From NCBI GenBank assembly GCA_040387055.1, contig JAZKEM010000040.1:6-64005 (forward strand): a stretch of DNA of 64,000 nt. Direction: 5' to 3'. This document shows positions 8,254 through 37,601 of the stretch, piece after piece. The position numbers and the translations under genes were made by a program. The number at the start of each line of letters is the position of its first letter. The first letter of the stretch is position 1. The stretch comes from Pseudomonadota bacterium. Lineage in GTDB: Bacteria; Pseudomonadota; Gammaproteobacteria; Nevskiales; Nevskiaceae. The notes under the pieces are model-generated. The model was not told the DNA's origin, made no database searches, and saw only the letters and a list, made by a program, of their open reading frames with translations.

Positions 8254-8278
8254 TTCCGTTTGCTCCTTGCGCGTCGGG

Positions 8279-9360: not shown

Positions 9361-9430
9361 TAGCGACCCAGCCATTTGCGCTTTGCCTTGGCTTGTCGTG
9401 CACGACGGATATCGCGGCGCTTCATGCGGC

Positions 9431-9885: not shown

Positions 9886-9928
9886 CCTGCAGCGACACAG
9901 ATAAGAAATAGGCGAAGACCTGGCGTCA

Positions 9929-13259: not shown

Positions 13260-13772
13260 TTAATCAAAAGGGATGTCGTCATCCTCGAAGCCATTGGGAT
13301 CCGTTGGCGGCGGGGCTGTCGATTGCGCTCGACTTGGGTCGCGTCCGGTTGCAGATGCGTAACCCGTTGCAGTTGCGCCTTGCTCGCGAGTGCGGCCGGG
13401 TTGATAACCACCACGCGACTCACCTTCTGCTGGCTTGCCATCAAGCATCTGCATGTCGTCCACCACGATTTCAGTGGTGAAACGATCCTTGCCGGTGTCT
13501 TTGTCTTGCCACTTACGGGTGCGAAGCTTTCCTTCGATGAAAATCTTGCTGCCTTTCTTCAAGAATTGGCTTGCGATTTCTGCCAGCTTTCGACGGAAAA
13601 CGATGTTGTGCCACTCGGTGTGTTCCTTGTTCTCACCCGAGGCTTTGTCCTTCCACGTTTCGCTCGTGGCGAGCGTGGTGTTAGCCACGGCATCACCATT
13701 CGGAAAGTATCGAAGCTCGATTTCTTTTCCGAGGTTGCCGATCAGTAGAACCTTGTTGATTCCGCGCGACAT
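13260..13772 (-). CDS. ssb: Single-stranded DNA-binding protein
   Basis: [43 protein letters not shown]... is followed by a Gly/Pro-rich tail ending DDDIPF. Confidence 0.95.
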
Positions 13773-21401: not shown

Positions 21402-21895
21402 GCGCAAAGCGCAGCGCTGACGCTATCTACGCCAAGGTGATGGAAGATGGATCCTTCGTGGCCGCTGATGACATCAGCGCAAGCCATTTACGACGAAAAA
21501 AAATCCGGCGTCACAGCATTGTTCGATTAGTTGTCAGCCAGCCACGCGACTATCCGAAATGGAAAAAAGCCCACGAGCTGGGCACATACATCGCCAACAA
21601 CCTTGAAGACTTCAGCAAGTTCCAGTTACCCAACAATCGCACCGACAGCCACGGAGCACTGAAGCACCTGCAAGCACTCAGCGGCGTCGAGTGCGAAGAA
21701 TCATTCGTCAAGCTCTCCACTGGCGACAACATGATGATCCGAACGCCACGCAGCCTGGCATTCGATGAAATGGAAGAAGGGCAGTACCAAGCAGCCTATT
21801 CAGGTTTCTGCCAATACCTCATCGACAAATACTGGCACGACCTCACAGAAAACCAGATTGCAAACATGGCGAGCCTCGTGGGGTTAGCGGCATGA
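21398..21895 (+). CDS. DUF1367-like phage protein (putative)
   Basis: Its position directly upstream of ninG and its C-terminal ...F..M.EGQYQAAYSGFCQYLIDKYW pattern are as remembered for DUF1367. This is a low-certainty family call. Confidence 0.35.
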   Translation: MSAKRSADAIYAKVMEDGSFVAADDISASHLRRKKIRRHSIVRLVVSQPRDYPKWKKAHELGTYIANNLEDFSKFQLPNNRTDSHGALKHLQALSGVECEESFVKLSTGDNMMIRTPRSLAFDEMEEGQYQAAYSGFCQYLIDKYWHDLTENQIANMASLVGLAA

Positions 21896-22545
21896 TCAAA
21901 GCGGCAGTCATAAAGCAACGCAAATGCAAAAGCTGCCGGAATCCGTACACGCCTCGGAACAGTATGCAGCCTGTGTGCTTAACCCCGACCTGCATCGTTG
22001 ACTGGCACCGCAAGCAGGAGGCGAAGAAAGTGCGCGCGGTTGGTGTAGCGCAGCGCAAAGCTCGCACGGAGTACCGCCGCGAAACTCGGCGAATGCGTGA
22101 AGCGATCATGGGCCGTGGCGAATGGGTCAAGAAGGTGCAGAAGGATGCCTTCAATCCCTACATCCGTGAACGTGATCGCAATGAACGGTGCATCACCTGT
22201 GATCGCACAAACGAAGAAGTAGCCGGAACCGATGGGTGGAAACCGGGTGGTCTTTGGGATTGCGGCCACTACCTCAGTGTTGGTTCACATCCAAATCTTC
22301 GATTCATTCCAGACAACGCACATAAGCAGTGCAAGTCCTGCAATGGCGGATCGAAGCACTACGCGCTGAAGGGTAGATCGGTAAAAGAAAGCTATGACGT
22401 GAACATCGTTGAGCGCATTGGACAAGCTGCGGTCGATGCGCTCAAGGCTGACAACGATCCACGCAAATACACCATCGAAGAACTGAAGCAGCTCTACGCC
22501 CATTTCACTGGACTGACGCGAGCACTCAAAAAAGGTGAAGCATGA
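21892..22545 (+). CDS. ninG: NinG/Rap-family recombination endonuclease
   Basis: CKSCRNPYTP...CLTPTC, AFNPYIRERDRNERCITC, WDCGHYLSVGSHPNLRFIPDNAHKQCKSCN and VERIGQAAVDAL are colinear with lambda NinG ([60 protein letters not shown]). Confidence 0.9.
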   Translation: MIKAAVIKQRKCKSCRNPYTPRNSMQPVCLTPTCIVDWHRKQEAKKVRAVGVAQRKARTEYRRETRRMREAIMGRGEWVKKVQKDAFNPYIRERDRNERCITCDRTNEEVAGTDGWKPGGLWDCGHYLSVGSHPNLRFIPDNAHKQCKSCNGGSKHYALKGRSVKESYDVNIVERIGQAAVDALKADNDPRKYTIEELKQLYAHFTGLTRALKKGEA

Positions 22546-22964
22546 AAGCTCAGAGAAAAGAGAGCGGGGAGAAGGTCGTAATTAAACGGCAGTTCCTGCA
22601 ACAGCTTCTGCTCAGTGTCAGCGCAAATCCTGCTGCGCTCGCCGACCTCAGCCCTGATCAAGTTCAGTTACTCAAGCAAGCTGTGCTTCGTGCGCGACGC
22701 GGCCTTAAGGAATCTTTGGAGCTGTCTGCAGTGCCACAACTGGCGCTGGAACTGCCGCCGCAGAAGAAGTGGAAGAACCAGAGCCGTTCGACAAGGCGGT
22801 CATGTAAGTATCCGTACAAGATGATCGAAGACGCTCGCAAAATGCGTGGCAACGGCTACTTCTATAAAGAAATAGCCGCTGCACTGGAGAAGGAATACGG
22901 CATCAAAGTGCCTTGGATCACCGTTCGCGATTGGGTCAACTACTACTACCGAGTCATGGGCTAA
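22542..22964 (+). CDS. Hypothetical regulator-like protein (140 aa) in the antiterminator-Q position
   Basis: It is the last gene of the rightward operon, after ninG. Its C-terminal HTH-like module is shared with 21183..21401. Confidence 0.5.
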   Translation: MKAQRKESGEKVVIKRQFLQQLLLSVSANPAALADLSPDQVQLLKQAVLRARRGLKESLELSAVPQLALELPPQKKWKNQSRSTRRSCKYPYKMIEDARKMRGNGYFYKEIAAALEKEYGIKVPWITVRDWVNYYYRVMG

Positions 22965-22967: not shown

Positions 22968-25900
22968 CTATTGATCCTTGAGCGCGTCGGAAACCTCGGC
23001 GCGCATTCCCTTTGGTGCTGACTTGATGAAGCGCTGAGCGCGCGTCATCGTCATCTGCTTCACGCGCTGCTGAATCGATGAAGGTGCGATCAGGATCCGT
23101 GAGTCTGGATTCTTAGCATTCCAGCGCATCAACTTCGCACGGGCTTTATTCACCTTGTCTTGATCGTGCTCGAAAATACCCTGCGCCCATTCCTCGGCAA
23201 TTTCAGATGAAGTGGCACGGTTGAGATCGATATCTTGGCGCTTTATTTCCACTGCGCGAGATTCAACCGCAACCTTTCTCGGGTTGAATCCGATGGCCTT
23301 CGACACGGCATCTGCCGTAGTAGTATCAATGACGCGGCGGCCCTTGTCGTCTCTTGCATATCCAAGTTGAGCCATCTGGTAGCCATTGATTGCGTTCTGC
23401 AAAGCGTTCGGCATTGCAGATTTCACAGCGCCGCTGATGTCGCCTGACAAAAGATCCGCTGCGGACTTTCCGTAATTCTTTGCAAGACCACCGATGGGGC
23501 CAACTGCCTCTGCAAATTCGCGGCCCTTGTCGTTCTGAGATTTCAAGCCAATGCCGGTGCCGGGAATCAAATTTCCCATACCCATGCGCCCAGCCACATC
23601 GATAGGCAGGAATGTCGATACGCCGCTTTGTGCAAATTCAGTAGCGCCTTGGCCAAAAATCGGTGTGATAACCGCACTAATAGCTTTGTTGCGCTCTTCC
23701 TTTGTGTTCCATGACAGGCCAAGGCCTTGAGCAATGGTATCGATCAAATCGTCGAGATCTTCCGCGCCTGGGAATCCGTTTACCCCTGCAGAGAGAACCA
23801 ACACACCAAGAGTCATCAACTGCTGTTTGCGCGGCAAGCGCTTCACGAACTCAAGGTAGCTGATGCTGTATTGCTTGAAGGTAAACACTGTTGCGCCGAC
23901 AGCACCGCGCGCCCAATTCGGACGGTTGCCGCGGTTGTAGACGCCTTGAGTTTCGTGCACCGCCTTGGCTGCAAAGTCGTAGGCATCCGTTGCCCTTGCC
24001 GCAGCAAGTTGCTCGCCTGAGAGTTTGCGCCCAATTTGATATGCGGCCGCAAATGTCGAGCGACGGTTGAACTGCTCAGCCAGCGAGAACATGCGGCCCC
24101 AAATAAACAGGCCCTTATTGCCGAGTTCGCGCGCCTTGTCGAATTTCCCCCAATCGCCTTCGGAGCGCATTGACGCAGCCGTCAGTTCGTGGATCTGGTG
24201 TGGCTCTACTGTGCCGTCCTTGATGGCTCTCTGCATTGCCGCGCGCAGGCCTGCATCACTGATAGCTTCTGGGCGCTGCATCGCGATCTTCATGCCGGCG
24301 GCAAGTTCCTTCGCTGCGGATCCTGCGCCCCACTGAGATAGATACGGCATCGACATCGTCACCGGCTGGGTCATGTTGACCATTGCTGATGCTACAGATC
24401 CGCCGAGGAAGTTGAAGAACAGGAACGAGCGGAGGCCCTGCGCTTCTTCGCGCGGATTCTGAATGTACTGAATCAAGCGACCGGCTTGTTTCTGCACGTC
24501 ACCTTTCTCTTTAGGAATGGCTTCCCACGCTTTGGTCATCTCGCCCATGTGCAAGCCCGACGATGCTGCGCGAGCATTGCTGGTGATGAACTGCGCGAGC
24601 ACGCGCTTCAAGTCTGGGTTGTAACCTTCGATGCCTTTGCGATGAATCAAGCGCTTCAGCGCCGACCGGTTGTTCTTGGCCAGCTTCAAGTACTGCTGGA
24701 ACGCATCATCTTTATCCATGCCGGTGACGCCAGCAAAGAGTTCGAGTGTTTCGGGCGTCATGCCCTTGAACATCTGATATGTCTCATCGTTCACAACGCC
24801 AGATTTAATCAGCGCGTCGGGGTACTGTTCCTGCATCAGACGTTCCATGCGATTTCGATCTGCGGCATTTTCAAACATGCTGAAGTAGACCGTCTCGCCA
24901 GCTTTGTCAGTGACGTGAAGCGAGTATTCGCCAAAGCGCATGAGCGGAGCGTAGCCCTCTGAAATTAGCTGGTTCACACGGCCAATCTTCTGATCAAAAT
25001 CATCAGCCAGGGCAGGAGCGGAATTAACGAGCAAATTACGTGCAGCGCGCATGGATCCCGCCGCCGCAGCTTCACGTGCTACCGCATCAGAGATGTTCGG
25101 GCGTGCGAGTTTCACCATGTCGGTGATGGCTACATCGCTCAAACTCTTATTGATTGCAGTCCGCGCTTGCTGATATAGGCGGATCTGCTTCGGGTTCAGA
25201 TTGAAGCGATCGCGCAGCTCCGATTCGGTGTAGTGCTTTTGATCTTCAAGAGTTCCGCGAAAGATTGCATCAGCAACAGGCTTCAGCTCTCGCGGGCTTG
25301 CACCAGATTTGGTTAGATCTGAAAAGCTTTCGAATTTCGGCAAGATGTCAGAAGCAAGGTCAGCGGCACCGAGCGCAAAGCGAGATACATCGGTTAGATA
25401 TTCCTGCGTGCGGTTGTAGACGCGTCCGTAATCTTTGTCGACTTGGGCTTTGTGGTACTGAGTACCAACTGTTTCATGCCACCAGCGATTGAAGGTTCGA
25501 CGATTGTCGAGCATGTCGCCAATGCGTTGGCGAATGTCTCCGATGGCTTCTGGTGCTCGCGCATCGGCGAGCGAGTACATCGGTTCGTCTTTACCTAGAA
25601 CTTGCCCGCTTTCTTGTCCGCTTCGATCAGCGCTTTGATCGTCTTCGAGGCCGAGCGTGCGTCGGCCCTCAGCGATTCGATCTCGGACGGCGTCAAGAGA
25701 CGGGGCAGCCGCGAGGTGCCCGGCTTCGCCTTGGGTGAGTTGATCGATTCCGAAACCGAAGTTTTCATGGAGATAATCATCCAATTTAGCGCCATGTTTG
25801 GCAAGCAATTTGTCACGCATCGCAGGGCGCAAAGTGATATCTGCCGTGCTCTCGTGACCGGTCAGCGCAGAGGCAAGGATGACGTGACCGCCATTGGCTT

Positions 25901-28900
25901 CGATGTGTCCGCGCAGATTGGCCAGCGTGCCGCCAATAGTCTGCGTGTCGTCGACAATCAGGTAGTTGCCGCCTTTCTTTACATCACCGTCAAAGGCTGG
26001 CTGGCTGGCGATTCGCTCATACGCGTTGGCATTTGTGTGAAATGCGCGAACCGATTGCATGATGTTTTCATCTACCGGAAGTCCAAGCTTTTGGCCCAGC
26101 AGTTCAGCGTAAGCACGCGGCAGCATATTGCGTCCGGTGGCCTCTACGGATTGAACCGGGACAACCGTGGGGCTCGAGTCACCGAGAGCTTTGCTCAGCT
26201 CTTCGAGCTTCTTGTCATCGAGTAGGTCATGCGCTACTCGGTATGCAGCGGCTGGGTCTCCAGCTTTGGCGGCGACATAATCGGCATGCTTCTGTGCCGC
26301 GCCAAGTGGCTGCATGCGGTGCACCGGTGGAAAGCCGTTCCAGTCCGCGCGGTCGGAACCGTACTTGCCCTTCAGACTGAAATCGATGCGCGAATCATTT
26401 GGATTGAACGTGCCACGATTGCCCGAGGCGGATTTGATTTGCTCTGAACCTTGCACCAAGAATACTCGGCCACCACCTTTGGTTAAGCTGTATTCGATCC
26501 CATGAGTTTTCCCGCTGCCGATGGTTTCTCTAGTACGACCGTTGTAGAGTCGGTCTATCTGCAAGTAAACCGGAATAACATTCTTTCCGTAGACTTTCGC
26601 TTCTTCTGGCGACGACGTGAAATAAAATCCTTTGCCGAGACGCCCCTCGCGCTGGCGTTTTTTATCGAACGCATCAAAATCACTGTCAGTCCCGTGATAC
26701 ACGATCAGCGGTTCGCCATTGGCGTCAATCACTTTGGAAGCACCAAACCATTTCTTAAAGGCAGGTGTATCGGTCTGCTTAATGTTCGATTCTTTTAAAC
26801 TCTGACCGGCCTCAGCGGTTGCAGCGTTCATTCCTGCCATGGCCTTGCGCAGGCTGGCCGAAACCATTGCGCGCAGATCGTTGTGATCCAGCTTGATGAA
26901 CTTGAAGCCCTTCGACCAAAGGAATTGGCGGATGGCCTGCATGACGCGCTGGAACCATGGCGCGCTAGAGGCTTCTGCTGATTCCCCGACATGCGCAATG
27001 ACTTCGCGTACAAAACGGTCACTGCCAGGTGTGATGTTCTTGTAGTTCCGCTCCACGCGATTCCATGCGCTTCTAACAATCGGATTGCCAGCAGCGCGCA
27101 TGCGACGGACATCGTTAAGCAGCTTGCTGTACTGGTCGGCGCCAAGCATTTGCTTCAGCCCGTAGTGCTCGCCAATTTCGTGCAGAACAATGGAGATAGC
27201 TTCTGACGCTTCGATGTTATCGGCCACGATATAGGCGGCTTTTCCATCGTACAGACCTCTCACGCGGCCAGCGATTTGGCTGGACATCTTTGCGCGCATG
27301 GTCGACGGTAAATCATCTGCAGACTGCACGATGTTCAGGATGCCGCGATCCATCAGCGATTTAACGCCAGCGGCTCCAAGCTTGTCGTTTAGTGCCTTTA
27401 GAACTTCTGCGGTGGTGGACTGCTGCACCGTGTTGTACGACGGCGACATTCTGAATTCAGGAGTTTCGCCAGCGGGTTTTTCAATGACGACCATGCGTGC
27501 ATTGACGCTGGTATTTACCGGAAGTGTAGGGTCTTCAAACGTGCCTTCCGCCAACTTCTCATCGGTGCCGCCAACAGATTCAAGCCACTCGCGGAACTCG
27601 CGGGCCTGCTTGTTGTCACGGAAGAATGCACCTTCGCCCATGATGGCGATCAGGCGGCCTTCCGGCTTGAGCAAGTCATAAGCATGGCGGACGTGCTGCA
27701 TGTCACGGCCATCGCTGAAAGGGGGATTCATGATGATGCGATCGTACTGACCAGCGGTTTCCGGCTTCAGGTCCATCGTGTCGGAGCCGACCACGTTGAA
27801 TCCCTTGGCTTCCAGCAGTTCGCGGCGATCACCAGACATCTCGACGACGTCAGGTTCAACACCTGCAGCGCGGATGCGGTCAGCGATGTGACCCATGCCG
27901 GCCGATGGCTCCAGCACGCGCATGCCTGGCTCAATGCCAGCGGCATCAACCATTTCATCGGCGGTGGTTTCCGGAGTTGGGAAGAAGTCGAGCCCGTCAT
28001 TGCGGCGCCCGACCATTGCCCGTTCCATCTGCTTGATTTTGTCTGGCTCTGCAGCCTGCTCGCGCAGGCCAATGAACTCACGCAAGGCGCTGCGGTATTC
28101 GGCTGGGGTTTCGATTCCCATGCGTGCAAGCGTTTTCAGCTTGTCGCTCGCGGATACAAACTGCCATGGTGCCGGGACGTCTTTGCGTCCCTTCAGCTTG
28201 GTAACAATCTCATTGCCAATTTCGTGCACAAGCGATATCCGCTTGTCGCCATCACCTTTCCAAATGCCGCGGCCAATGGCTTCGCTTGGGCTCATCACGA
28301 TGGCATTCTTTCCACGGCCCAGCGGCATCACAATCGCTTTGCCTAAAAGGCCGGAGCGACGGATAGCTGTCTCTGCAGCTTCACGGGTTGGAATGACAGC
28401 AGGTTTGCCGTCATTGATCGTGTACGGCGATACCTTCTCCCAATTCGCTTTAGCGAACTTGGTGTATTCGTCCGACACGTCATCGGCAACCTTCAACAGT
28501 CGCGTGCTGATCAACTTCAGCCCGTCGACGTCTTCCAACTGTCGTGCAAGGCTTGCAAGGTCAGAGCGATACATCGTGAAGCTGGGGAAGGTGGCGAACT
28601 CAACCGTATCGGATGTTGCTGGCTCGCCCTTGTGCTTGAGCTGTTCGCCGTAGCTGTCGTACTTAGCGCGCAGCTCGTCATCTTTCGCGGTGTTGATCGT
28701 GGTCGTCAGCAGTTCAACTTGAGTTTTCTGACGCACGCGGTCAAGGAACTTTGCTTTGCCGGATTCGACGGCCTTGGCAATGTTGCGCATGGTCTTGGCC
28801 AGCGCCTTGCTTGCATTCGCGTTTGCTTCTGCTCGCGAAGCCATGGCGGCGCGGCGATTGGTGTTTGTCTTGCGATCTGCATTGAGTGATTCGTCTGCGC

Positions 28901-31900
28901 GCTCTTCCAGTGCGTCAGCCATTTCAGTCAGACGTTCGACAGCAGTCTGTGAACGATCATCTTGGAAGGCATCGCGGCGCGTCTGTGCGGTCTCGTTTGC
29001 AGCAGTGGCATCACCGTTGGCCAGCTTTACGAAGGCCTCAGCAGTGGGCCGGTCAGTGAACTGGAAGCCAGCTATTGCCCCCGCGCCACGGAATGACGAG
29101 TAGTACCCACCCATCCGCTTGGCTGCAGTGTTGAGCGTGTCGTAGTCCTCGCGAGGGACGCGCTCACCGAGGCGCACGACAAACAGATCGTGCAGCTTCT
29201 TCGTGTGCTTGGTCGCAATGATTTCAGCATCGACCTTCTGACCAGCTACGCGGATCTCGCGGGATTCATCTTTCTGAACCTTGCGAGTGCTGCGAGACTT
29301 CTCAGCCGAAAGAGCATCGTAAGCTTCACGCTGCTCTGGGGTCAGCATCAGTCGCGCGTCGCGGTGCTTCTTACCTTCGCCCGTGTGGAATCGCATGAAG
29401 GCGTAAAAGTCTTCGAGCGTCTTAGGGCTCTTAATGGATTCCACGCGTGCAGCGCGCTGAGATGCAAACTCTTCGCGCTTCTTCTTCATGTCGGCAGCGT
29501 ATTCGGCCAGAGATTCAGCCGATTGACCGTTTACCAATTCGGTTAATGCCTTAAGCTTGGCGGCTTCGTGTCGCTCTAATGCCCCAGGTGCCATCATGTA
29601 GCCAGTGGGGCCGTACTCTTTGCCCAGCGCGAATGACCGCACAAAAGCTTGATAAACCTGATCAACAAGCTCCGGCTTTTTGTATTCACGGCCATAGCCA
29701 CGGCCGCCAATCAGGTCATACAGCGCATCTTTATTCTTGCCAGCGAGTTCAGCCTTTACAGACGCGACGTTATCGATCAAAGCAGTAAATGCGCTGCGGT
29801 ATTGTTCAACCGTTGCAGTGCCATCGCGAAGCGCAGCAATGGTTTCGTCAGCGGTCTTGAATGCTGAGTCGGGAGCTGTCTCTACCGCTGCATTAGATTC
29901 GGTCTCGGTAGTTTCAGCCCGAACCTGATCAACCACCTTTCGTAGCTCGTCACGATCACCGCCAAAGAACGTCTTTGCGATATCGATCTTGTCGTGCACG
30001 CCCTTAACGATGCCTTCGCCAGAAATGGTGAACGACACAGGCTGCTTGCCAGCGCCAAACGTCACGCGCTCAACATTCATGCCAGCGATTTTGTCGCCTT
30101 TCTTCAGATTGAGAATCTTGCGAACGATTTCAATCTTGGATTTTTCTTTGGCTTCAGCGCGACGTGCGATATCGGCTGAGGTTCCCTTGCCAGCAAGCAG
30201 TGAATTTGCTTGCGCTTCGAGGGATTCAGCCTGCTTGTAGATCCCAACTGCAATGCCAGCCTTTTTGACAGATGAATCAATCGCCTGCTCTTTCCGCTTG
30301 GTCATCTTGGTGAAACCGACGCCCAAGGGGAATGCGTTGCCCTTGTTCATGGGATCGCTGCTACGGCCTACGATGCCATTGGCTTTGCGCTGCAGTTCGT
30401 CGGCCTTCTTGAAGGCCATGCGAATTGCGTTCTTGTCAGAATCGTTGAGCACTACGCCAGATTTCTCGGCGGCTTCGATCTTCGCTTCGACAGGATCCTC
30501 GTTGGGCTTCTTGGCTTCTACGGCTTCACGGAGCGCCTTGTTTGCGGCGTCGTCATCCAAGTCTTGGTAGTAGAAGTCCTCGACGATGCTGTCGATTTCC
30601 TTCGGCGTAATGCCTGCATCGAGCGCATCTTTAATCGCGCTGCGATCAAGGCGATCGTACTTGCCGGCCACCGCTTGCACAGGGTTGTCGACAGCGTTGT
30701 TCGCCATGAAGAACGCATACGCGAAACCTTCTGGCGTAACGCTGCGAGCATTCTTTGTAGCCTGGCTCTTTCCGCCGTACTGCGTGTGCATCTTCGAGCC
30801 TTCAACAGGCTCAACGGGTGCAATCGGCATGTCGCCGTCAAAGCGGCCCCAAAGAAGAGTCTTCTTCGTGTACGTGTCGCCGAAGTTGTAGGGGTCGAAC
30901 GAAGTGCGCCAAGGCGGAAGGCCGCCAAGTGATTCAATGCGGCCGACTGGATTTTCCAATGCCCAGACAGCAGGCTTGAAGTACTCGATAGTGGCGAGCG
31001 TCTGATGCACCAGCTTGACTGACGAAACGGTGCGACCGTCAGAATCCTTGGCGGCAAAGTGACGTGCGCCGGATGATGCGAAGTCCGTGCAAGGGCAGGC
31101 GGCAAGAATCGCGTGGATGTCTTGGCCTTCGAAGTCGCCGAACCAGTCGCCGAAGAAATCAGCGGAGAAATTCGTGACGTCGCCGACTTCTGCGTCGTCC
31201 TGAATATCGAAGCGATAGACCTGATACCCAGCTTCTTCCCAAGGCTTAGACCACTCACCGGACAAATCAAACAGAGAGAGCACAACTTTCTGGCTGTTCT
31301 CAGAACGGTTTTCTTTGCCCTGTTTCTCGGCGTGCTGCTTCCACTCTTTGATCTTCTGCTTGGCTTCAGCAGGCGTCATCCATCCATGCTTAGAAACATG
31401 GACTTTTACTTTGTCATTTAATCGAACAATCTCGCTCTTCTTTGGAGCATCGAAAACATGGGTGACTTGATCGTCACCGTTAATCATCGATTCTTGTGCG
31501 TCGCTGAACTCGGCGGCGATCTTCTTCAGATCAGCTTCGCTCGCGCCTTCCGTCGGGTAGGCGTTGTGTTCAGGAGCGGTTTTTACGTTACTAGCTGATT
31601 CAAGCGCTCTGATTTGATCGCGTACTTCCTGAATCTGCTCGTTAAGATCGCTTGATCGAGCGTTATAAGTCGTCGTTTGTGCGCGAGTTGCGGAGCCATC
31701 GCGATACTTCTGCATATGCTGCGTTTGCATACGCTCACGCTTCGTAGTCAGGTTTTCAAGGTTAGCTTGAAGTGCTTTTAGTGTTGGAGATTGTTCGCCA
31801 TTGGCTGAGGTTGCAGGTGGTGCGATTGAGCTTGCCCCCAGCGCCTTCAAGATTCCACGCAACTCATTCGTGGCTTCTCCAGCGTCATCGTTCTTCAGCC

Positions 31901-34900
31901 ACTCGGATACCGTTTCGACCGCATCGCTATGAATCGAAATCAGGTCGTCTCCGTTATCCAAAGCGGCCGTGATTCGATCACTCAGTTGGGAGGCTTGCTC
32001 CGTGATGCTTGGGGAAAACTGCCCATCGTTCATCGTGTCAGAACCAGCGTCCAGCATGTCGCGCAAGATGATTAGCGAGGCGCGTGCTTGCGTTTCTCCG
32101 GCGATGTTGGCTTTGGTGCGCTCAGCGAGGTCGGACTCATCAACTAAGTCGGTTTGCTTTTGCTGGTTCGAGAAGAGACCGCCATCGATATCAGCGGGTA
32201 CATCTTTGGTGCCGTTGCGCTGCGCATCCTTGGCGCGCTGGGCATCTGCAAGGGCCTGCTCCTTAACTGGAGCTGCCCCAAATAAATCTACTTGGCCGCT
32301 GGAGCCTTGGCCTTCGCTGTTGGCTTCTGAATGTTGGCGGCTGCCTTGGCTTTGCGATCCTTCGCGTACGCCACTCCCGCTGCGTAGAGTTTCTGCACTC
32401 TGGTTTTGCTTTGATTCTGTGCCATTAACAATTTCCTCCAGTGCTCGGCGATAACCCGCATCGTCGTCCTGATGACGAATAGCGGCCTCTTCTGTCGCGT
32501 CAGCGTCAATATCATGCGCTTGTGCCGTAAGCGCTGCAATCTGCAAATCATCTTCATTGCTGGCATCCGCCCCAGCGGCTTCGAGGTGGTCGGCCAATGT
32601 CGGGTCGAACGGATCTACGCTGTTCGCAGCATCAAAGGCGGCATCTTCAGCGCGGCCGCTGTCGACAAAATCGAGCATCCATTGGATGGCGCGCTTCTCT
32701 GACGCGGTCAGTGGCTTGCCATCCAGTGCTTTGGTTACTGCTTGGCGGACACCGTAGTCGCTGCCTGGCAACTTCACGCCACGCGCAAACTCGGCGAACC
32801 AAGGCGCATGCGGCACCCAAGTCGTGCGGCCGCTGACTTCGTTGTCGGGCCCGCGAAGAATTCTGCCACCGACTGTTGCCCAGCCAGCTTCGTTGGCCAT
32901 TTCTCGCAGCTTGTCGTGGTACGACTGATCCTTGAGGCGTGCATCGTCAGACGGCGTGAGTTTCTTGCCGTTCTGTACTGGTGACTTCTGTGCCTGAGTG
33001 GTCGCGGCTTTGCCCTTTACCTTCTCTTTTGGTTCAGGACGAGTCGAAAACGGAAGACCAAATGCTTTCTCTACTTCGTGTGCATCCTTGAAGGTTGGTG
33101 GAAAGTCGTTGCTGTCGAGGTCCGGGTCTGGATTATTTTCAGCGACGGGGCGAGTGGCGCGTTTAAATCCGGATCCTCCCTCCCATTCACCGACCTTGAA
33201 CTGTTTGCCCTTCCAGTCGTCATCAAGACCGATTGCGCTCGGATCTAGCAGGGTGCGAATCTGACCTTTTCCTTTGCTATCGTGCGCAGGCAATCCGACA
33301 CGCTTACGCGTTTCATTGAAAATGTTTTCACGCCACGATTCATCGTTGAGCGTTTTCTGAGCGGTCAGAACTTCTTTCAGGAACTTATGATCTTTCGCTT
33401 TAGTTGGTCCATCGACGGTGTCGTTGTACCACTGGTTCAGTGCCTCTGGCAGTGCTTCATCAAATGCAGTGCGGCTGGATGCTGCTTTCTGCACTTCAGG
33501 ATTTGACGCCGCGAACTCGTGCGCTGCCTTGGTTAGGTCAGCCGCCTTGCGCACATCCTGGCCTTTGCTTGCGCTCGATTCGTCCTTCGTCGAACTGGGG
33601 AATTCCTTAACCAGCGGCAACAGATCCTTGATCGGAGAATCAAGGCGAATCACCTTCACAGGTTCTTTGCTGTCGGCTTTGGCCAGCCACTGATGATGAC
33701 CATCGACTACATGGTTGTCAGATGAAATCAGGATTGAACGATCACCGCCCTCAAAGTTTTTAGCTTTCTCTACCTTGGAGGGGGAGTATTCAGCCTGCGT
33801 TGCCTTGAGCGTTTCCGGCGCAACCTCTTCCTGTTCGTGGCTGATGCCGCGACCTTTAAGGAAGTTGACCAGCGCGCCGCGGTGCTCAGCTTTGACCTGT
33901 GGCATTTCTGCACGAGGCACGCCAAGCGTTCCAGACTCTTTCGCGAACTGCTTGAACTCGGGTTCGTCAGAATTTACATCTGACCGATTGCCTGTTCCTT
34001 CGCTGGCGGGAACGACCGGCGCTTTTTCTTGGGCGCTGGCTTGCTGTCCTTCGCCGGTGGAAATGGCGGCTTCTTGTTGCTGTTGGTTTTGCTGGGGAAC
34101 ATTGGCTTTTACCTCGTTGCTGATTGGTGCTGCGTTCGGGCGCAGCACAAAACCACCCTCGACAGGATGAATGGTGTGCGTTTCTTTCTGACCACCTTTT
34201 GCGCGCGCGCCAGTGGCTGCGATCTTGGTGGGGAATGGCGAGCCATCTGGACGGCTAATATCGCTGGCGATCAGTGGATTAGGCTGCTGGGACTTGGTGA
34301 CTCCCACAGATGCAGGCGCTGCATTGCCTGATCCAGTTCGGGCGGCATCATCGCCAATTCGTTGTGCGGTGTTTCGCAGCTCAGCTTGTGAATTTGCCGC
34401 GCCTGTCGACGCGTTATCACTCTGTCGCCCATTGCCTGCCGGAGCCACTTTGGAAGCATTGATTTGTTCGCCATTCACTGCCTCCTTGCGTGCAAGCACG
34501 AACTGACCTTTCTCGACGCGACTAACAGCGAACTGATCGCCGTCATCCATCTTCTTGAGAAATGCACTCGCACCGAGATAGCTTTTCCAAGGCTGGTTAT
34601 CCTTTGGATTGCGGACTTCGCTGGGTGGAGCTTTGATGCCGGTAGGGCGACCGCTGATTAAGTCGGCTTCTGCGCGCTGCTGTTGTGCGCTCGCGTTTTC
34701 AGCGAAGGTCGCGCGGCGAGCAGCACCATCAGGGCCCACAACCATGTCACGAGCTGGAGCAGGTAACGCAAGTTGCGCCTGTACACCGGGCATCTGGCCA
34801 GCATCTTCCGCTTGCACGGTGCCGACTTCGATGCCTTCGGCAGTTGGCTGCTTAAAGCGATCACCGCTATCCAAGGTGATATTGCTGGATGGGACTTCGC

Positions 34901-36077
34901 TTACTTCAATGCCGCGTGCAGATGGCAGAGTCGCATCATCGAAAGCTGATTCGACATTGGCTTGCGCCGTTGCGTCATCGGCCTCTCGCTTCTGAAGATC
35001 GGTGAATTCTTTCTGCAGCGATTTGGCTTTGCCCGGCGATTGCTCAACCTTTTCATTGAGCGCTGCATCTTGGCGAGCTTGCTGCTGATCACCCACGGCA
35101 GCCGCGGCATCAGGATTAAGGCCAACTGCTTTCGTCAGTGCGCCAGCACCAGGCTGCTGCGCAGCTTGTGCAACGTCGGCAATGTCTGCATTGCGCTGCG
35201 CTGCGATTGGATCAACTTTGTTTTGCTTTTCGCGTGGCGTGAAACCGGAAGCGGCACCACCAAACACACCGCCACCGATGCCACCAGCAAGGCCCGACAT
35301 AACGTAGTCGTTAGTTGCATCGTCGCCGGTTAGTTCTTGGCCAGCGCCGTAACGCTCGAGTCCAGTCTGTGCGACTTCTGTAACGCCTTCGCCTGCAGCC
35401 GACTTCAGCGCTTCCTTGCCCATGTGGGCAAGACGGCTTTCACCCGGGGCAAGATCGCGGCCCAGCATCTTCGCAAGGCCTTCTTCGGTGACTTTGCCAC
35501 CGGATTTGAGAATGTTCTTCGCAATGATTGCTTCAGGACCAAGCGCCAACTCGAGTGCGGTCGCTGGAAGCGCACCAGTCAGTGCGCGGCCCTTGTCATC
35601 AATGCCTTCTTCATCTTGACCCTGACGGATGCCGCCATATTCCTGCGCGAACGTCGGGACCAATCCGCCAGCGATACCACCAAGGATTGCACCGCGACCG
35701 CCACCGATTCGTGAGCCAAGCTTTGCACCGGCAGCAACGCCGGCCATGTTGATACCAAGCTGCGGAGCCATTTCGGCAATCGCTTGCTTCGCGAACGTGC
35801 CCGGGTTGTCCTTGATGCCCTGAATGTCAGTGACGAGGGCAGGGTTACGCGCTGCAAGGTCTTCACCGTAGTGCTGAATGCCAGAGGCAATGCCGCCAAC
35901 ATCGGTGACGTCTTTGAGCGCACGTCCGGTCGAACCGATGACGTTGCCGACAGAGCGTTTGATTGATGTGCCGACGACACTAGGCTTTTCGTACCCGGCC
36001 GCAAACGGATCTGCGATCCCTTCGTTGTTCTCGCTTACTGCGCCGGAAACTTTGAAGGGATCGAAGATGTCAGCCAT
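22968..36077 (-). CDS. Giant multidomain 'polyvalent' virion-associated protein (4369 aa)
   Basis: Single uninterrupted ORF at the distal end of the virion operon. Recognisable modules are listed as separate features: ParB-like, C5-MTase-like, N6-MTase, HExxH zincin, ART-like, PRTase-like, and a PLxRFG plus TM C-terminal region. Confidence 0.9.
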   Translation of the reverse strand: MADIFDPFKVSGAVSENNEGIADPFAAGYEKPSVVGTSIKRSVGNVIGSTGRALKDVTDVGGIASGIQHYGEDLAARNPALVTDIQGIKDNPGTFAKQAIAEMAPQLGINMAGVAAGAKLGSRIGGGRGAILGGIAGGLVPTFAQEYGGIRQGQDEEGIDDKGRALTGALPATALELALGPEAIIAKNILKSGGKVTEEGLAKMLGRDLAPGESRLAHMGKEALKSAAGEGVTEVAQTGLERYGAGQELTGDDATNDYVMSGLAGGIGGGVFGGAASGFTPREKQNKVDPIAAQRNADIADVAQAAQQPGAGALTKAVGLNPDAAAAVGDQQQARQDAALNEKVEQSPGKAKSLQKEFTDLQKREADDATAQANVESAFDDATLPSARGIEVSEVPSSNITLDSGDRFKQPTAEGIEVGTVQAEDAGQMPGVQAQLALPAPARDMVVGPDGAARRATFAENASAQQQRAEADLISGRPTGIKAPPSEVRNPKDNQPWKSYLGASAFLKKMDDGDQFAVSRVEKGQFVLARKEAVNGEQINASKVAPAGNGRQSDNASTGAANSQAELRNTAQRIGDDAARTGSGNAAPASVGVTKSQQPNPLIASDISRPDGSPFPTKIAATGARAKGGQKETHTIHPVEGGFVLRPNAAPISNEVKANVPQQNQQQQEAAISTGEGQQASAQEKAPVVPASEGTGNRSDVNSDEPEFKQFAKESGTLGVPRAEMPQVKAEHRGALVNFLKGRGISHEQEEVAPETLKATQAEYSPSKVEKAKNFEGGDRSILISSDNHVVDGHHQWLAKADSKEPVKVIRLDSPIKDLLPLVKEFPSSTKDESSASKGQDVRKAADLTKAAHEFAASNPEVQKAASSRTAFDEALPEALNQWYNDTVDGPTKAKDHKFLKEVLTAQKTLNDESWRENIFNETRKRVGLPAHDSKGKGQIRTLLDPSAIGLDDDWKGKQFKVGEWEGGSGFKRATRPVAENNPDPDLDSNDFPPTFKDAHEVEKAFGLPFSTRPEPKEKVKGKAATTQAQKSPVQNGKKLTPSDDARLKDQSYHDKLREMANEAGWATVGGRILRGPDNEVSGRTTWVPHAPWFAEFARGVKLPGSDYGVRQAVTKALDGKPLTASEKRAIQWMLDFVDSGRAEDAAFDAANSVDPFDPTLADHLEAAGADASNEDDLQIAALTAQAHDIDADATEEAAIRHQDDDAGYRRALEEIVNGTESKQNQSAETLRSGSGVREGSQSQGSRQHSEANSEGQGSSGQVDLFGAAPVKEQALADAQRAKDAQRNGTKDVPADIDGGLFSNQQKQTDLVDESDLAERTKANIAGETQARASLIILRDMLDAGSDTMNDGQFSPSITEQASQLSDRITAALDNGDDLISIHSDAVETVSEWLKNDDAGEATNELRGILKALGASSIAPPATSANGEQSPTLKALQANLENLTTKRERMQTQHMQKYRDGSATRAQTTTYNARSSDLNEQIQEVRDQIRALESASNVKTAPEHNAYPTEGASEADLKKIAAEFSDAQESMINGDDQVTHVFDAPKKSEIVRLNDKVKVHVSKHGWMTPAEAKQKIKEWKQHAEKQGKENRSENSQKVVLSLFDLSGEWSKPWEEAGYQVYRFDIQDDAEVGDVTNFSADFFGDWFGDFEGQDIHAILAACPCTDFASSGARHFAAKDSDGRTVSSVKLVHQTLATIEYFKPAVWALENPVGRIESLGGLPPWRTSFDPYNFGDTYTKKTLLWGRFDGDMPIAPVEPVEGSKMHTQYGGKSQATKNARSVTPEGFAYAFFMANNAVDNPVQAVAGKYDRLDRSAIKDALDAGITPKEIDSIVEDFYYQDLDDDAANKALREAVEAKKPNEDPVEAKIEAAEKSGVVLNDSDKNAIRMAFKKADELQRKANGIVGRSSDPMNKGNAFPLGVGFTKMTKRKEQAIDSSVKKAGIAVGIYKQAESLEAQANSLLAGKGTSADIARRAEAKEKSKIEIVRKILNLKKGDKIAGMNVERVTFGAGKQPVSFTISGEGIVKGVHDKIDIAKTFFGGDRDELRKVVDQVRAETTETESNAAVETAPDSAFKTADETIAALRDGTATVEQYRSAFTALIDNVASVKAELAGKNKDALYDLIGGRGYGREYKKPELVDQVYQAFVRSFALGKEYGPTGYMMAPGALERHEAAKLKALTELVNGQSAESLAEYAADMKKKREEFASQRAARVESIKSPKTLEDFYAFMRFHTGEGKKHRDARLMLTPEQREAYDALSAEKSRSTRKVQKDESREIRVAGQKVDAEIIATKHTKKLHDLFVVRLGERVPREDYDTLNTAAKRMGGYYSSFRGAGAIAGFQFTDRPTAEAFVKLANGDATAANETAQTRRDAFQDDRSQTAVERLTEMADALEERADESLNADRKTNTNRRAAMASRAEANANASKALAKTMRNIAKAVESGKAKFLDRVRQKTQVELLTTTINTAKDDELRAKYDSYGEQLKHKGEPATSDTVEFATFPSFTMYRSDLASLARQLEDVDGLKLISTRLLKVADDVSDEYTKFAKANWEKVSPYTINDGKPAVIPTREAAETAIRRSGLLGKAIVMPLGRGKNAIVMSPSEAIGRGIWKGDGDKRISLVHEIGNEIVTKLKGRKDVPAPWQFVSASDKLKTLARMGIETPAEYRSALREFIGLREQAAEPDKIKQMERAMVGRRNDGLDFFPTPETTADEMVDAAGIEPGMRVLEPSAGMGHIADRIRAAGVEPDVVEMSGDRRELLEAKGFNVVGSDTMDLKPETAGQYDRIIMNPPFSDGRDMQHVRHAYDLLKPEGRLIAIMGEGAFFRDNKQAREFREWLESVGGTDEKLAEGTFEDPTLPVNTSVNARMVVIEKPAGETPEFRMSPSYNTVQQSTTAEVLKALNDKLGAAGVKSLMDRGILNIVQSADDLPSTMRAKMSSQIAGRVRGLYDGKAAYIVADNIEASEAISIVLHEIGEHYGLKQMLGADQYSKLLNDVRRMRAAGNPIVRSAWNRVERNYKNITPGSDRFVREVIAHVGESAEASSAPWFQRVMQAIRQFLWSKGFKFIKLDHNDLRAMVSASLRKAMAGMNAATAEAGQSLKESNIKQTDTPAFKKWFGASKVIDANGEPLIVYHGTDSDFDAFDKKRQREGRLGKGFYFTSSPEEAKVYGKNVIPVYLQIDRLYNGRTRETIGSGKTHGIEYSLTKGGGRVFLVQGSEQIKSASGNRGTFNPNDSRIDFSLKGKYGSDRADWNGFPPVHRMQPLGAAQKHADYVAAKAGDPAAAYRVAHDLLDDKKLEELSKALGDSSPTVVPVQSVEATGRNMLPRAYAELLGQKLGLPVDENIMQSVRAFHTNANAYERIASQPAFDGDVKKGGNYLIVDDTQTIGGTLANLRGHIEANGGHVILASALTGHESTADITLRPAMRDKLLAKHGAKLDDYLHENFGFGIDQLTQGEAGHLAAAPSLDAVRDRIAEGRRTLGLEDDQSADRSGQESGQVLGKDEPMYSLADARAPEAIGDIRQRIGDMLDNRRTFNRWWHETVGTQYHKAQVDKDYGRVYNRTQEYLTDVSRFALGAADLASDILPKFESFSDLTKSGASPRELKPVADAIFRGTLEDQKHYTESELRDRFNLNPKQIRLYQQARTAINKSLSDVAITDMVKLARPNISDAVAREAAAAGSMRAARNLLVNSAPALADDFDQKIGRVNQLISEGYAPLMRFGEYSLHVTDKAGETVYFSMFENAADRNRMERLMQEQYPDALIKSGVVNDETYQMFKGMTPETLELFAGVTGMDKDDAFQQYLKLAKNNRSALKRLIHRKGIEGYNPDLKRVLAQFITSNARAASSGLHMGEMTKAWEAIPKEKGDVQKQAGRLIQYIQNPREEAQGLRSFLFFNFLGGSVASAMVNMTQPVTMSMPYLSQWGAGSAAKELAAGMKIAMQRPEAISDAGLRAAMQRAIKDGTVEPHQIHELTAASMRSEGDWGKFDKARELGNKGLFIWGRMFSLAEQFNRRSTFAAAYQIGRKLSGEQLAAARATDAYDFAAKAVHETQGVYNRGNRPNWARGAVGATVFTFKQYSISYLEFVKRLPRKQQLMTLGVLVLSAGVNGFPGAEDLDDLIDTIAQGLGLSWNTKEERNKAISAVITPIFGQGATEFAQSGVSTFLPIDVAGRMGMGNLIPGTGIGLKSQNDKGREFAEAVGPIGGLAKNYGKSAADLLSGDISGAVKSAMPNALQNAINGYQMAQLGYARDDKGRRVIDTTTADAVSKAIGFNPRKVAVESRAVEIKRQDIDLNRATSSEIAEEWAQGIFEHDQDKVNKARAKLMRWNAKNPDSRILIAPSSIQQRVKQMTMTRAQRFIKSAPKGMRAEVSDALKDQ
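22971..25579 (-). other. C-terminal PLxRFG-type region with hydrophobic segments (aa ~3500-4369)
   Basis: APLMRFGEY is at aa 3710-3718 (PLMRFG core 24930..24947). Hydrophobic stretches are FLFFNFLGGSVASAMVNM and LMTLGVLVLSAGVNGF. Confidence 0.55.
25848..26294 (-). other. Phosphoribosyltransferase (PRTase)-like module (aa ~3262-3410, approximate)
   Basis: GGNYLIVDDTQTIGGTLANL matches the PRPP-binding loop pattern (hhhVDD..tTGgT). Confidence 0.6.
26433..26765 (-). other. ADP-ribosyltransferase-like module (aa ~3105-3215, approximate)
   Basis: LIVYHGTDSDFDAFD...GKGFYFTSSPEEAKVYG is an H...Y-type pattern, as in the polyvalent-protein ART clade. This call is from motif memory. Confidence 0.45.
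26898..27380 (-). other. Zincin-like metallopeptidase module (aa ~2900-3060, approximate)
   Basis: IVLHEIGEHYG contains HExxH (aa 2966-2970; 27165..27182 spans HEIGEH). Confidence 0.5.
27468..27995 (-). other. N6-adenine (amino) DNA methyltransferase domain (aa ~2695-2870, approximate)
   Basis: Motif I is RVLEPSAGMGHIA. Motif IV is IIMNPPFS. Confidence 0.75.
30693..31289 (-). other. DNA cytosine-C5 methyltransferase-like domain (aa ~1597-1795, approximate; compact)
   Basis: VVLSLFDLSGEWS resembles motif I, AACPCTDFASSG resembles motif IV (PC..FS), and WALENPVG resembles motif VI (ENV). Confidence 0.6.
33633..33935 (-). other. ParB/Srx-like nuclease domain within the giant ORF (aa ~715-815, approximate)
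   Basis: ...GGDRSILISSDNHVVDGHHQWLAK contains the DGHH(R/Q) signature of ParB N-terminal-like domains (DGHHQW = aa 792-797). Confidence 0.65.
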
Positions 36078-37601
36078 TTATTGCCCGTAGGTGCGTTGGT
36101 AATACGCTTTGAGCTGGTCATCAGACTGTCCCTTATTACGTGGGTCAGCTTTTGCCGCTGCGAGGAACTTGTCTAATGTTGGAGCTTCTTGGCCCCCTGA
36201 ACCCATAGCGGGCTGAGCGGCGCCAGACGGGGGCGTCAGCCACTTTTTATTTTCAGAGTCGTAGAGGCTGTCCGCCATGATCGGCTGACCAAACGAATCA
36301 GTGCCAGCCACGCTGCGAACACGCTGAAGTGATGCTTCGCGTGGATCTTTGCCAAGACCAATGAGCGCCTGACGCTCGAGTACGCGACGTGCATCCGATC
36401 CAAGGTTTTGATCAGACAGTTGATCAATGATCGACTGTTGACGCTGAGCGTTCTTGTTTTGCAGGCCTTGTGCGATCGCTTGCTCGCCACCAAGAGCGTT
36501 TTGCGTTTTCGCCTGCTGGTCATTCAGGCGTAGTTCCTGCTCTTGCTCCGGCGTACGAATGAAGTCTTTATTCGGCGCACGACCAGCCGCATCAGCGGCG
36601 CGACCTTCGAAATCCGTTGCAGCGGCGAGTAGCTGACGCTGAGTGCGACCGCCCTTAACAAGGCCAACACTGCCCGCAGAGATACGCGCGTTACGTGCAG
36701 AATCGTTGAGTGCATTGCGTTGTGCGATCTGATTCTCGCTGGACGTGCTGGCTGCCAAGTCGACTGACTGGCGAGCGCGAGCGTCCAAACTTTGCTGCTG
36801 GCTTTGATTCACGAAGTCTTGGGTGCGTTTCAAATCTTGCTCGTTGCCAATGACCGATACGCCACCGCCTTTCTTTGCAGCGTTGAATTCAACGCCACCG
36901 GCAATCGGCTGATCACTGAACGTGTTGCCATTGCGATACACGCCAGAACTAGCGCCATCAGCGCCAGGCGCATCATCTTGTGCAGAAACTGCACGCGGAT
37001 CATTCGGCAGATTCGTTGGTCTTGCGATAGACGCAGGGTTTGGCAGAGGCGCTGCAATACCTTGCTGTGCTGGGTTGTCATTCGCACGCAGGATGGATCC
37101 GAACGATTGAATGGGCTCAGCGCCACCGAAGCCACGAGCGACATTCACCGCACCTGTGCCGATATCGAGTACGCCAGCGCCTACGTCAGAGACCACGCCA
37201 GCCGTGCGAGCGGCGACGTCTTTAAAACCATTTTCACCAACAGTCTTAGGATCCAGCCCCAAGCGGTTGTAGTAGTCCTCGGTTGGGCGGCTGAATGCGT
37301 CAATCGATGATCCAATCGCGGCCGCAGGGATTACACCTGCAGCTATGCCGCCTCCAACTCGACTAATGCGAGTCGCTTTATTCAGCGCGCCGACTTTGGG
37401 TGGCGTTGCTGGTCGTGCAGTATTTGCGGCTGAAGGCGCTGCGGCACGTTGCTGAGCCAGTGATTGCTCTGCAGCGACAGAATCAGCGGTGCGCATCTGC
37501 GCAAGGCGCTGTTGAGTCTGAGCATCAATCGCAGGGCGAACACCTGTGCGCGCTTTACGCTGTGCTGAGTCAGATTGATAAAGCAGATCATCAATGGCCA
37601 T
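36078..37601 (-). CDS. Putative internal virion/ejection protein (507 aa, Gln/Ala/Gly-rich)
   Basis: Its stop abuts the giant-ORF start. The composition is low-complexity and the gene lies within the virion operon. Confidence 0.5.
   Translation of the reverse strand: MAIDDLLYQSDSAQRKARTGVRPAIDAQTQQRLAQMRTADSVAAEQSLAQQRAAAPSAANTARPATPPKVGALNKATRISRVGGGIAAGVIPAAAIGSSIDAFSRPTEDYYNRLGLDPKTVGENGFKDVAARTAGVVSDVGAGVLDIGTGAVNVARGFGGAEPIQSFGSILRANDNPAQQGIAAPLPNPASIARPTNLPNDPRAVSAQDDAPGADGASSGVYRNGNTFSDQPIAGGVEFNAAKKGGGVSVIGNEQDLKRTQDFVNQSQQQSLDARARQSVDLAASTSSENQIAQRNALNDSARNARISAGSVGLVKGGRTQRQLLAAATDFEGRAADAAGRAPNKDFIRTPEQEQELRLNDQQAKTQNALGGEQAIAQGLQNKNAQRQQSIIDQLSDQNLGSDARRVLERQALIGLGKDPREASLQRVRSVAGTDSFGQPIMADSLYDSENKKWLTPPSGAAQPAMGSGGQEAPTLDKFLAAAKADPRNKGQSDDQLKAYYQRTYGQ

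Follow-up and report, generated by a model that had tools for sequence, protein, structure and literature searches.

A 4369-residue PLxRFG giant closing the virion module of a temperate phage or prophage is a probable polyvalent internal virion protein

PLxRFG giant virion proteins make up about one-fifth of the genome in many temperate podophages, and to our knowledge none of them has an experimentally shown function. Here we analyze such a giant, a protein of 4369 residues encoded in a stretch of 64,000 nucleotides (the window) from a Pseudomonadota bacterium of the Nevskiaceae (positions 6 to 64,005 of contig JAZKEM010000040.1, assembly GCA_040387055.1), against the closest described systems. 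The class, the domain vocabulary and the virion location of homologues are already known (PMC5512222, PMC9144972 and the GenBank note on gp60 of phage H66). Polyvalent proteins, a concept rather than one family, share with the window giant a vocabulary of HYD2-clade ADP-ribosyltransferase (ART), DD-motif phosphoribosyltransferase (PRTase), ParB/sulfiredoxin (ParB/Srx), adenine methyltransferase (MTase), HEXXXH metallopeptidase (MPTase) and LPD domains, as well as a late-gene context, with neither the PLxRFG C-terminal domain nor a C5-MTase module appearing in the main text of their survey (PMC5512222). P1 DarB, with the order LPD36, N6-adenine MTase and SF2 helicase, is packaged in the phage head. 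In N4 and DEV the cargo-bearing ejection protein is the product of the third and largest gene of the podophage ejection operon (PMC13434306), N4 gp50 (and DEV gp71) being a giant of about 3500 residues that is packaged and ejected with an RNA polymerase as its cargo. Finally, Bcep22 gp75 (4602 residues) and JC1 gp69 (4515 residues), which in Lessievirus bear the label "DarB-like antirestriction", are giant single open reading frames (ORFs) ending the virion module of temperate podophages of about 62 kb; by mass spectrometry, these Bcep22-like giants are virion proteins, JC1 gp69 having yielded 51 unique peptides (PMC9144972).

The window giant carries at least two unrelated enzymatic domains and lies among late genes with a portal–terminase system, two of the marks of a polyvalent protein (a third, delivery into the recipient cell along with the DNA, is presumed), and its polyvalent nature, as put forward in a first reading of the sequence (the original prediction), is borne out by an ART-PolyVal module, a PRTase of the solo or MuF-fused phage kind reported for polyvalent proteins, a HEXXXH-type domain and a late operon with portal and terminase. 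We consider it likely that the protein is a polyvalent internal virion protein of an F116/H66-type temperate podophage or prophage, that is, a packaged and ejected carrier of anti-restriction and host-modifying enzymes. Any single enzymatic assignment is rated much lower than this overall picture. The ORF itself, the identities of its domains, its family, its late-operon position and its mosaic relationship to relatives are established. What is new is the combination: two MTases without a helicase, together with ParB-like, HExxxH, ART and PRTase modules on a PLxRFG chassis, were found in no relative examined.

The giant gene runs from 22968 to 36077 on the minus strand, stop codon included (all module coordinates given below are likewise on the minus strand), and its translation from an ATG start contains no internal stops in the ORF listing of the window; a 13.1-kb open frame at about 55% GC makes a chance origin impossible. 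The protein is collinear from N- to C-terminus with a 3297-residue prophage protein of Solimonas marina, and large parts of the giants of phages H66 and 8P are collinear with it as well, which excludes, as far as sequence can tell, a frameshift or mis-assembly. The single 13.1-kb ORF of the original prediction, closing the virion operon as the last gene of the minus-strand module, therefore stands at its exact coordinates, and the attached doubt that it might be split by frameshifts is answered by the unbroken frame and the collinearity with the S. marina giant. Of the seven modules then proposed, six are supported by profile or fold tools, while the seventh, a zincin, had been misread as HExxH (see below).

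By its sequence, the giant is a member of the PLxRFG giants of temperate podophages of about 60 kb (F116/H66 type). The family-defining PLxRFG C-terminal domain (residues 3708–4358; 23004..24956) matches NCBIfam NF032893 with an E-value of 5.5e-149 and 497.7 bits (cut-off 100) over profile positions 2–680 of 681, has PLMRFG at residue 3711, also matches phrog_21376, and contains hydrophobic segments at residues 3882–3903 and 4087–4108. The PLxRFG region and its hydrophobic segments had been noticed by eye, though the F116/H66 family had not been named. With the giant gene, megablast against the phage database returned no match. In a tblastn search of 50,697 phage records, the best matches were F116-like Pseudomonas phages (Hollowayvirus: F116, H66, LKA5, phiC725A and others), the giants of which are 36–43% identical over the MTase block and the C-terminal 840 residues. 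Sixty-eight phage records contain the PLxRFG domain; almost all of these genomes are about 60 kb in size, and the giants are usually labeled "DarB-like antirestriction". The phages include PBC5, Atu_ph08, Skulduggery, SopranoGao/LASTA, Parlo, Pavtok, POI1126, Vibrio phage douglas and Pseudoalteromonas phage Y7. The giants of H66, 8P, Skulduggery and Vibrio phage douglas likewise sit at the distal end of their virion modules. In Pfam scans the relatives follow one plan, in which variable enzymatic cargo is followed by LPD39 or an equivalent and then by the PLxRFG domain, the cargo being an SNF2 helicase in PBC5, SLT, helicase and MTase in Skulduggery, inorganic pyrophosphatase and MTase in Vibrio phage douglas, MTase, LPD23 and LPD3 in H66, and C5-MTase, Eco57I-type MTase, SNF2 helicase and LPD23 in 8P. 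Module shuffling is the rule in PLxRFG giants. In its RefSeq record the PBC5 giant appears as two "DarB-like" coding sequences, gp22 (2180 residues) and gp21 (2524 residues), separated by a 1.6-kb gap; the giant may truly be split or interrupted by an intervening element, or the old record may suffer from a sequencing problem.

The nearest relative, found in a scan of one genome per species, is the 3297-residue prophage giant of Solimonas marina C16B3 (NZ_JAAVXB010000002:269701-291740, with the giant at 2150–12043 therein). Both giants have the same order, with identities of 37% at the N-terminus, 62% over residues 2045–2784 (including the N6-MTase), 64% over the HExxxH module and 77% over the C-terminal 900 residues, and at the DNA level the S. 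marina prophage is 68–75% identical to the window in the chassis parts only. The S. marina giant is 1072 residues shorter. It lacks the ParB-like module, a 700-residue unassigned region and the C5-MTase, which in the window giant together form an extra block A (about residues 692–2044), and it has a MuF_C domain exactly in the slot that in the window giant is taken by ART and PRTase, the extra block B (about residues 3095–3466). On this comparison, blocks A and B are gained relative to the S. marina giant, by what reads as cassette exchange on a fixed chassis, and ART and PRTase look like a cassette acquired into the MuF_C slot. For the ParB-like and C5-MTase modules of the window giant, phage 8P has the closest counterparts (58% and 52%), and a weak match (27%) links the HExxxH and ART stretch to Pseudoalteromonas phage Y7.

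Two cultured phages provide further comparisons. H66 gp60 (3787 residues) is likewise the last gene of its virion module and likewise lacks a helicase; its ParB-like module is 57% identical, the part corresponding to residues 1952–2871 is 51% identical and the C-terminal 840 residues are 35% identical to the window giant. It differs in having LPD23 and LPD3, in lacking C5-MTase, ART and PRTase, in giving no BLASTP match to the HExxxH region, and in being followed by lysis genes, whereas in the window a convergent block with NinG and replication genes follows. Its GenBank record reads "PLxRFG domain-containing protein", verified by mass spectrometry in virions. Gp23 of Pseudomonas stutzeri phage 8P (5145 residues) resembles the window giant in its ParB-like module (58% identity), C5-MTase (52%) and C-terminal domain (36%); it has an Eco57I-type MTase and an SNF2 helicase (a true DarB-like dyad) as well as LPD23, and lacks ART and PRTase.

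Both MTases of the original prediction were recovered. The N6-adenine DNA MTase module (residues 2675–2872; 27462..28055) matches several methyltransferase PHROGs and, weakly and below or near cut-off, Pfam MTS, Eco57I and N6_Mtase, and has the motifs FFPTP at residue 2699, EPSAGMG at residue 2723 and, as had been seen by eye, NPPF at residue 2784. The combination of TP with NPP(Y/F) is the signature of DarB-type (EcoKI/TaqI-like) gamma-class adenine MTases (PMC5512222), and the assignment of residues 2675–2872 as a gamma-class N6-adenine MTase with an N-terminal TP motif is supported by these sequence features. The compact C5-cytosine DNA MTase-like module (residues 1589–1799; 30681..31313) matches phrog_757 "DNA methyltransferase" at 3.6e-47; Pfam DNA_methylase (PF00145; cut-off 22) scores 24.7 bits on the isolated segment and 20.2 bits on the whole protein, the match spanning profile positions 25–110 of 324. 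Its motifs are PCTDF at residue 1662 (motif IV, with PC at 1662–1663) and ENPVG at residue 1708 (motif VI). It is 52% identical to a part of 8P gp23 that also matches PF00145, and a search of the segment against PDB sequences gave no match. With the full giant, phmmer against PDB sequences returned a weak generic methyltransferase match only.

No helicase was found in the giant: it lacks Walker A and DExH motifs and matches no Pfam helicase family; in PBC5 gp21, Skulduggery and 8P, a like Pfam scan does detect helicase families (ResIII, SNF2 or Helicase_C). The DarB label that is common in annotations was rejected for the window giant, which, without a helicase, is not a true DarB. P1 DarB and the window giant do share a gamma-class MTase with TP and NPP(Y/F) and are both presumed protectors of incoming DNA against restriction; P1 DarB lacks the PLxRFG domain. 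The missing helicase, which might have driven in-cis methylation of entering DNA, also bears on an alternative in which the late-made MTases methylate progeny genomes in the producer cell before packaging, their presence in virions being incidental. Two MTase modules with intact motifs, and late-operon expression coinciding with genome replication and packaging, agree with this alternative, which we nevertheless hold to be improbable: the H66 gp60 homologue is recorded as a virion component, stand-alone phage MTases suffice with 250 residues so that a 4369-residue fusion to a conserved C-terminal domain would go unexplained, and ART-PolyVal, PRTase and ParB-like modules are unneeded for self-methylation and are elsewhere fused to head-internal MuF or portal proteins.

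The module with DGHHQW at residue 792 (residues 707–835; 33573..33959) is among the most conserved parts of the giant, with more than 110 metagenomic and genomic homologues at 45–70% identity. An AlphaFold2 (AF2) model built from 30 homologues had a predicted local distance difference test score (pLDDT) of 83, and in a Foldseek search of the PDB ranks 1–15 were all ParB/Srx folds (pNOB8 ParB-N, human sulfiredoxin, Noc, ParB-CDP and Atu1540), with probabilities up to 1.00 and E-values of 0.012–0.8, weak as such but mutually consistent. A ParB/Srx fold of residues 707–835 is thus supported by modeling, and the ParB-like domain of the original prediction stands in this sense, though its motif has Gln for the ParB Arg and Pfam gives no direct match, PF18763 (DdrB-ParB) and PF02195 both being absent. 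ParBc_2 matches 3 of the 30 homologues weakly, and the profile found nothing among PDB sequences. The Gln of DGHHQ, at the position of the ParB Arg, is invariant in all 30 sequences, with other invariant Arg residues at segment positions 28 and 86. Membership of the Pfam DdrB-ParB family was considered and rejected, both for want of a PF18763 match and for the Gln in place of the active-site Arg. The same DGHHQW module, again at 45–70% identity, lies C-terminally in over 40 portal proteins of the Mu gp29 type (PF06074) and also occurs in proteins with SLT, PBECR1 or LPD3, and from this distribution it looks like a widespread head-internal cargo domain covered by no Pfam model.

For the module that follows the N6-MTase (residues 2885–3095; 26793..27425) the original prediction had given an HExxH zincin. 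A regular-expression search found no HExxH in the entire giant; the motif is HEIGEH (residues 2966–2971), with an almost invariant Glu (Glu3025) 54 residues downstream, and a zincin remains plausible given the conserved ligands and the AF2 topology. A full HMMER scan of 1.84 billion representatives retrieved 1729 representative clusters with this domain (E<=1e-3), which are with few exceptions proteins of 1000–6500 residues, and among 143 homologues His2966 and His2971 are kept in 100% and Glu2967, Gly2969 and Glu3025 in 99%. The AF2 model (pLDDT 87) has strands at segment residues 43–46, 70–72 and 77–80, the motif on a long helix (88–107) and Glu3025 on a later helix (149–160), and three strands followed by a motif helix and a Glu helix is the topology of the polyvalent-protein MPTases, for which a HEXXXH clade has been named (PMC5512222). 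Matches of the model in BFVD were other phage polyvalent or MuF-C proteins, and the profile found nothing relevant among PDB sequences. The module is likely a metallopeptidase, as judged from conservation and the model. One could take this further and read the giant as a self-cleaving injected polyprotein, in which the HExxxH domain would free the modules, ART and PRTase would act as a pair on NAD+ or PRPP-derived nucleotides against immunity based on nucleotides or nicotinamide adenine dinucleotide (NAD), the MTases would shield the entering DNA, and the two ends, Gly-rich at the N-terminus and PLxRFG at the C-terminus, would make up a universal chassis, a "third ejection protein" able to deliver arbitrary enzymes; we regard this extended version as improbable.

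The ART-like and PRTase-like modules that had been recognized by eye follow next. The compact ART-PolyVal module (residues 3101–3232; 26382..26777) matches Pfam PF18760 at 2.7e-19 and 70.8 bits against a cut-off of 31.2, has the motifs VYHGT at residue 3126 and GFYFT at residue 3150, and has 31 homologues that carry PF18760. The GC content of this segment is 0.488, against 0.54–0.59 in every other module, which fits a separate, perhaps recent, acquisition. The type I PRTase module (residues 3243–3472; 25662..26351) has a phosphoribosyl pyrophosphate (PRPP) loop, LIVDDTQTIGGT, in which D, D, G, G and T are invariant, and VDDT at residue 3375. Its 88 homologues are mostly solo proteins of 240–270 residues, some of them named phosphoribosyltransferase or with PF00156 and two fused to Phage_Mu_F. 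The profile of these homologues, when searched against the PDB, found 33 chains with the PRTase fold and nothing else, the best being an APRT at 2.5e-6 on the PRPP loop. In IMG/VR, searched with peptide patterns, no relative of the module was found, and among the isolated phages of the phage database it occurs only in Moraxella phages Mcat8 and Mcat5 and Burkholderia phage vB_HM795.

Cargo of this kind is framed by conserved ends. The N-terminal region (residues 90–290; 35208..35810) is Gly/Ala-rich with hydrophobic, glycine-zipper-like segments: 15 of the 46 [GAS]xxxGxxx[GAS] motifs of the giant fall within residues 100–300, and mildly hydrophobic segments lie at residues 126–144, 168–190 and 259–277. 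Most relatives share such a region, similar Gly/Ala-rich and partly hydrophobic N-termini being present in the H66, 8P, Y7 and S. marina giants, and identity between the window N-terminus and those of other giants is 28–37%. This region may contact a membrane or the portal. Toward the other end, residues 3532–3707 (24957..25484) form a conserved region before the PLxRFG domain, residue 3532 being the start of the alignment with S. marina, H66, 8P and Y7. This is the position of LPD39 in more distant giants (those of PBC5, Skulduggery and Vibrio phage douglas), where LPD39 immediately precedes the PLxRFG domain; Pfam gave no direct LPD39 match in the window giant, and LPD39 is listed merely as possibly enzymatic (PMC5512222). 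A third conserved region precedes the N6-MTase (residues 1952–2670; 28068..30224), where H66 gp60 is 51% and the S. marina giant 62% identical. Two PHROGs, phrog_11358 and phrog_15406, extend over it, Pfam gives no match, and no LPD domain, LPD36 included, was found by Pfam in the conserved residues 1861–2670. About 2600 residues of the giant have no assignable domain, more than the roughly 2000 motif-free residues of the original prediction, and about 1300 of them (residues 135–610 and 1952–2670) are conserved in relatives.

A conserved chassis around a variable middle, the N-terminal glycine-zipper-like region, the C-terminal hydrophobic segments and a position analogous to that of T7 gp16 and N4 gp50 would also suit a purely structural ejection protein, an inner-membrane part of the DNA ejectosome with the enzyme-like modules as decayed, inactive passengers. 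This account appears unlikely. The signatures are kept throughout (NPPF with TP, PC with ENV, DD with the GGT PRPP loop, and HExGxH with its Glu), and the conservation of catalytic-type residues argues for active enzymes; moreover, the modules are 45–70% identical to homologues in unrelated proteins, which points to purifying selection on each module.

The original prediction had also placed the giant in the slot of the N4 virion RNA polymerase and had compared it with the Bcep22/BcepIL02 protein. The N4 slot holds by position and analogy only and not by sequence similarity: BLASTP against N4 gp50 stays at chance level (E>1) with no region similar, and the C-terminal profile scores −10.2 bits on N4 gp50 in hmmsearch with all filters off. 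Homology of the C-terminus to N4 gp50, as suggested in PMC5217972, was rejected on these two results. In agreement with the original prediction, which saw no T7/N4-type RNA polymerase motifs, neither Pfam nor NCBIfam nor the PHROGs gave an RNA polymerase family in the giant. Early transcription by an N4-type virion RNA polymerase, for which speak only the size, the position at the operon end and an older label of the phiC725A homologue ("putative internal virion polymerase"), is therefore highly implausible, the more so as a CI-like repressor and lambdoid replication genes fit the use of the host polymerase. The likeness to Bcep22 is confined to the ParB-like module, which is 52% identical over 121 residues, and does not extend to the remainder of gp75, in which there is no PLxRFG motif and which goes undetected by the PLxRFG C-terminal profile. 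Orthology with Bcep22 gp75 was accordingly rejected, and with the ParB-like module alone in common the Bcep22-like giants are to be seen as analogues from the same module pool.

Returning to the packaged carrier of anti-restriction and host-modifying enzymes, we infer packaging, ejection, processing and every enzymatic activity of the window giant from the homologue H66 gp60 and from the analogous cases of P1 DarB, T4 Alt and the N4/DEV ejection operon (PMC5512222; PMC13434306). The giant would be made late and a few copies packed in the head; on infection it would leave with the DNA by way of the portal and tail, probably accompanied by the 507- and 625-residue proteins encoded upstream. Its N-terminal Gly-rich region and PLxRFG domain would be the chassis that serves virion incorporation, exit and membrane or channel contact, with the middle part as exchangeable enzymatic cargo. 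The N6-adenine and C5-cytosine MTases could then modify the incoming genome in cis before restriction, following the DarB paradigm minus the helicase, while the ParB/Srx module might bind or hydrolyze a nucleotide or nick DNA, the ART might ADP-ribosylate a host target in the manner of T4 Alt, and the PRTase might make, consume or sense a PRPP-derived nucleotide. The HExxxH domain, finally, may cut the polyprotein into working pieces.

Several points weigh against this picture. Packaging is extrapolated from a homologue of about 40% identity, and the late-operon MTases could act on progeny DNA in the producer cell. DarB-type MTases are nearly always paired with a helicase (PMC5512222), and there is none in the window giant. 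The C5-MTase is compact (about 210 residues), and no target-recognition domain was identified in it, no test having been aimed at one. The PF18760 match of the ART module is limited to profile positions 1–65 of 140, and the HExxxH module has no Pfam match and only chance-level helical matches in Foldseek against the PDB. Only one segment of the giant exceeds a strict hydropathy threshold, the PLxRFG C-terminal profile found nothing in the PDB and thus no solved or recognizable relative, and the chassis or channel role of this domain is a guess.

Should the packaged-effector model be true, such giants would set host range by pre-empting restriction or other immunity at DNA entry, and would be possible natural protein-delivery vehicles. 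The window sequence is an added data point and not a new principle, and cultured F116, H66 and 8P are better experimental systems; it does illustrate clearly how cassettes are exchanged on a fixed chassis, two inserted blocks being visible against the nearest relative.

The virion module that the giant closes lies entirely on the minus strand and has, upstream of the giant gene, the order large terminase (TerL, 55308–56852), portal (52071–54218), major head protein (49391–50581), Hc3-like head-closure protein (46501–47799), a 1447-residue protein (39504–43847), a 625-residue protein (37626..39503) and a 507-residue protein (36078..37601). The last two are candidate partner proteins, each with one hydrophobic segment in hydropathy plots. 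The 625-residue protein, a candidate ejection or internal protein, matches phrog_10969 (E=1e-105) and is 30% identical over its full length to H66 gp58, which is encoded two genes upstream of H66 gp60. The 507-residue protein, a candidate ejection protein, has its glycine-zipper-like hydrophobic segment at residues 79–103 and is 42% identical to the protein encoded immediately before the S. marina giant; it has no match in PHROG, Pfam or the phage database. The 1447-residue protein contains WD40/PD40-type beta-propeller repeats throughout (13 Pfam propeller families), and the PHROG matches of its C-terminal part are to "virion structural protein" and amidase-like families, a make-up that is unusual for a podophage tail or fiber gene.

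On the other side of the giant lies a convergent gene (22542..22964, plus strand), followed by NinG (21892–22545, plus strand) and replication-initiation genes, and beyond these RecE/RecT, a CI-like repressor and integrases. The presence of NinG, replication, RecE/RecT, CI-like repressor and integrase genes marks the element, on gene content, as a phage or prophage of temperate lifestyle, at least 59 kb long. The stop codon of the giant (22968–22970) is 3 nucleotides from the end of the convergent ORF (22964), and the sole terminator-like hairpin nearby (22982–23004, plus strand) lies within the last codons of the giant. As to an operon-closing terminator, terminator-like sites are no commoner than in shuffled sequence.

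Recombination genes in the early region at 13772–16530 and 12323–13204 (both minus strand) encode two exonucleases, one RecE-like and a second that is recombination-associated, as well as a RecT-like annealing protein; with NinG and two distinct replication-initiator genes, they point to an early module of lambdoid type. At the far end of the window, within positions 1–5700, two tyrosine-integrase genes face each other (3429–4472, plus strand, and 4691–5680, minus strand) beside a replication-initiation gene (2231–3232, plus strand) and a low-GC stretch (1–2000, GC 0.47); this part is probably a prophage end abutting a second small integrative element.

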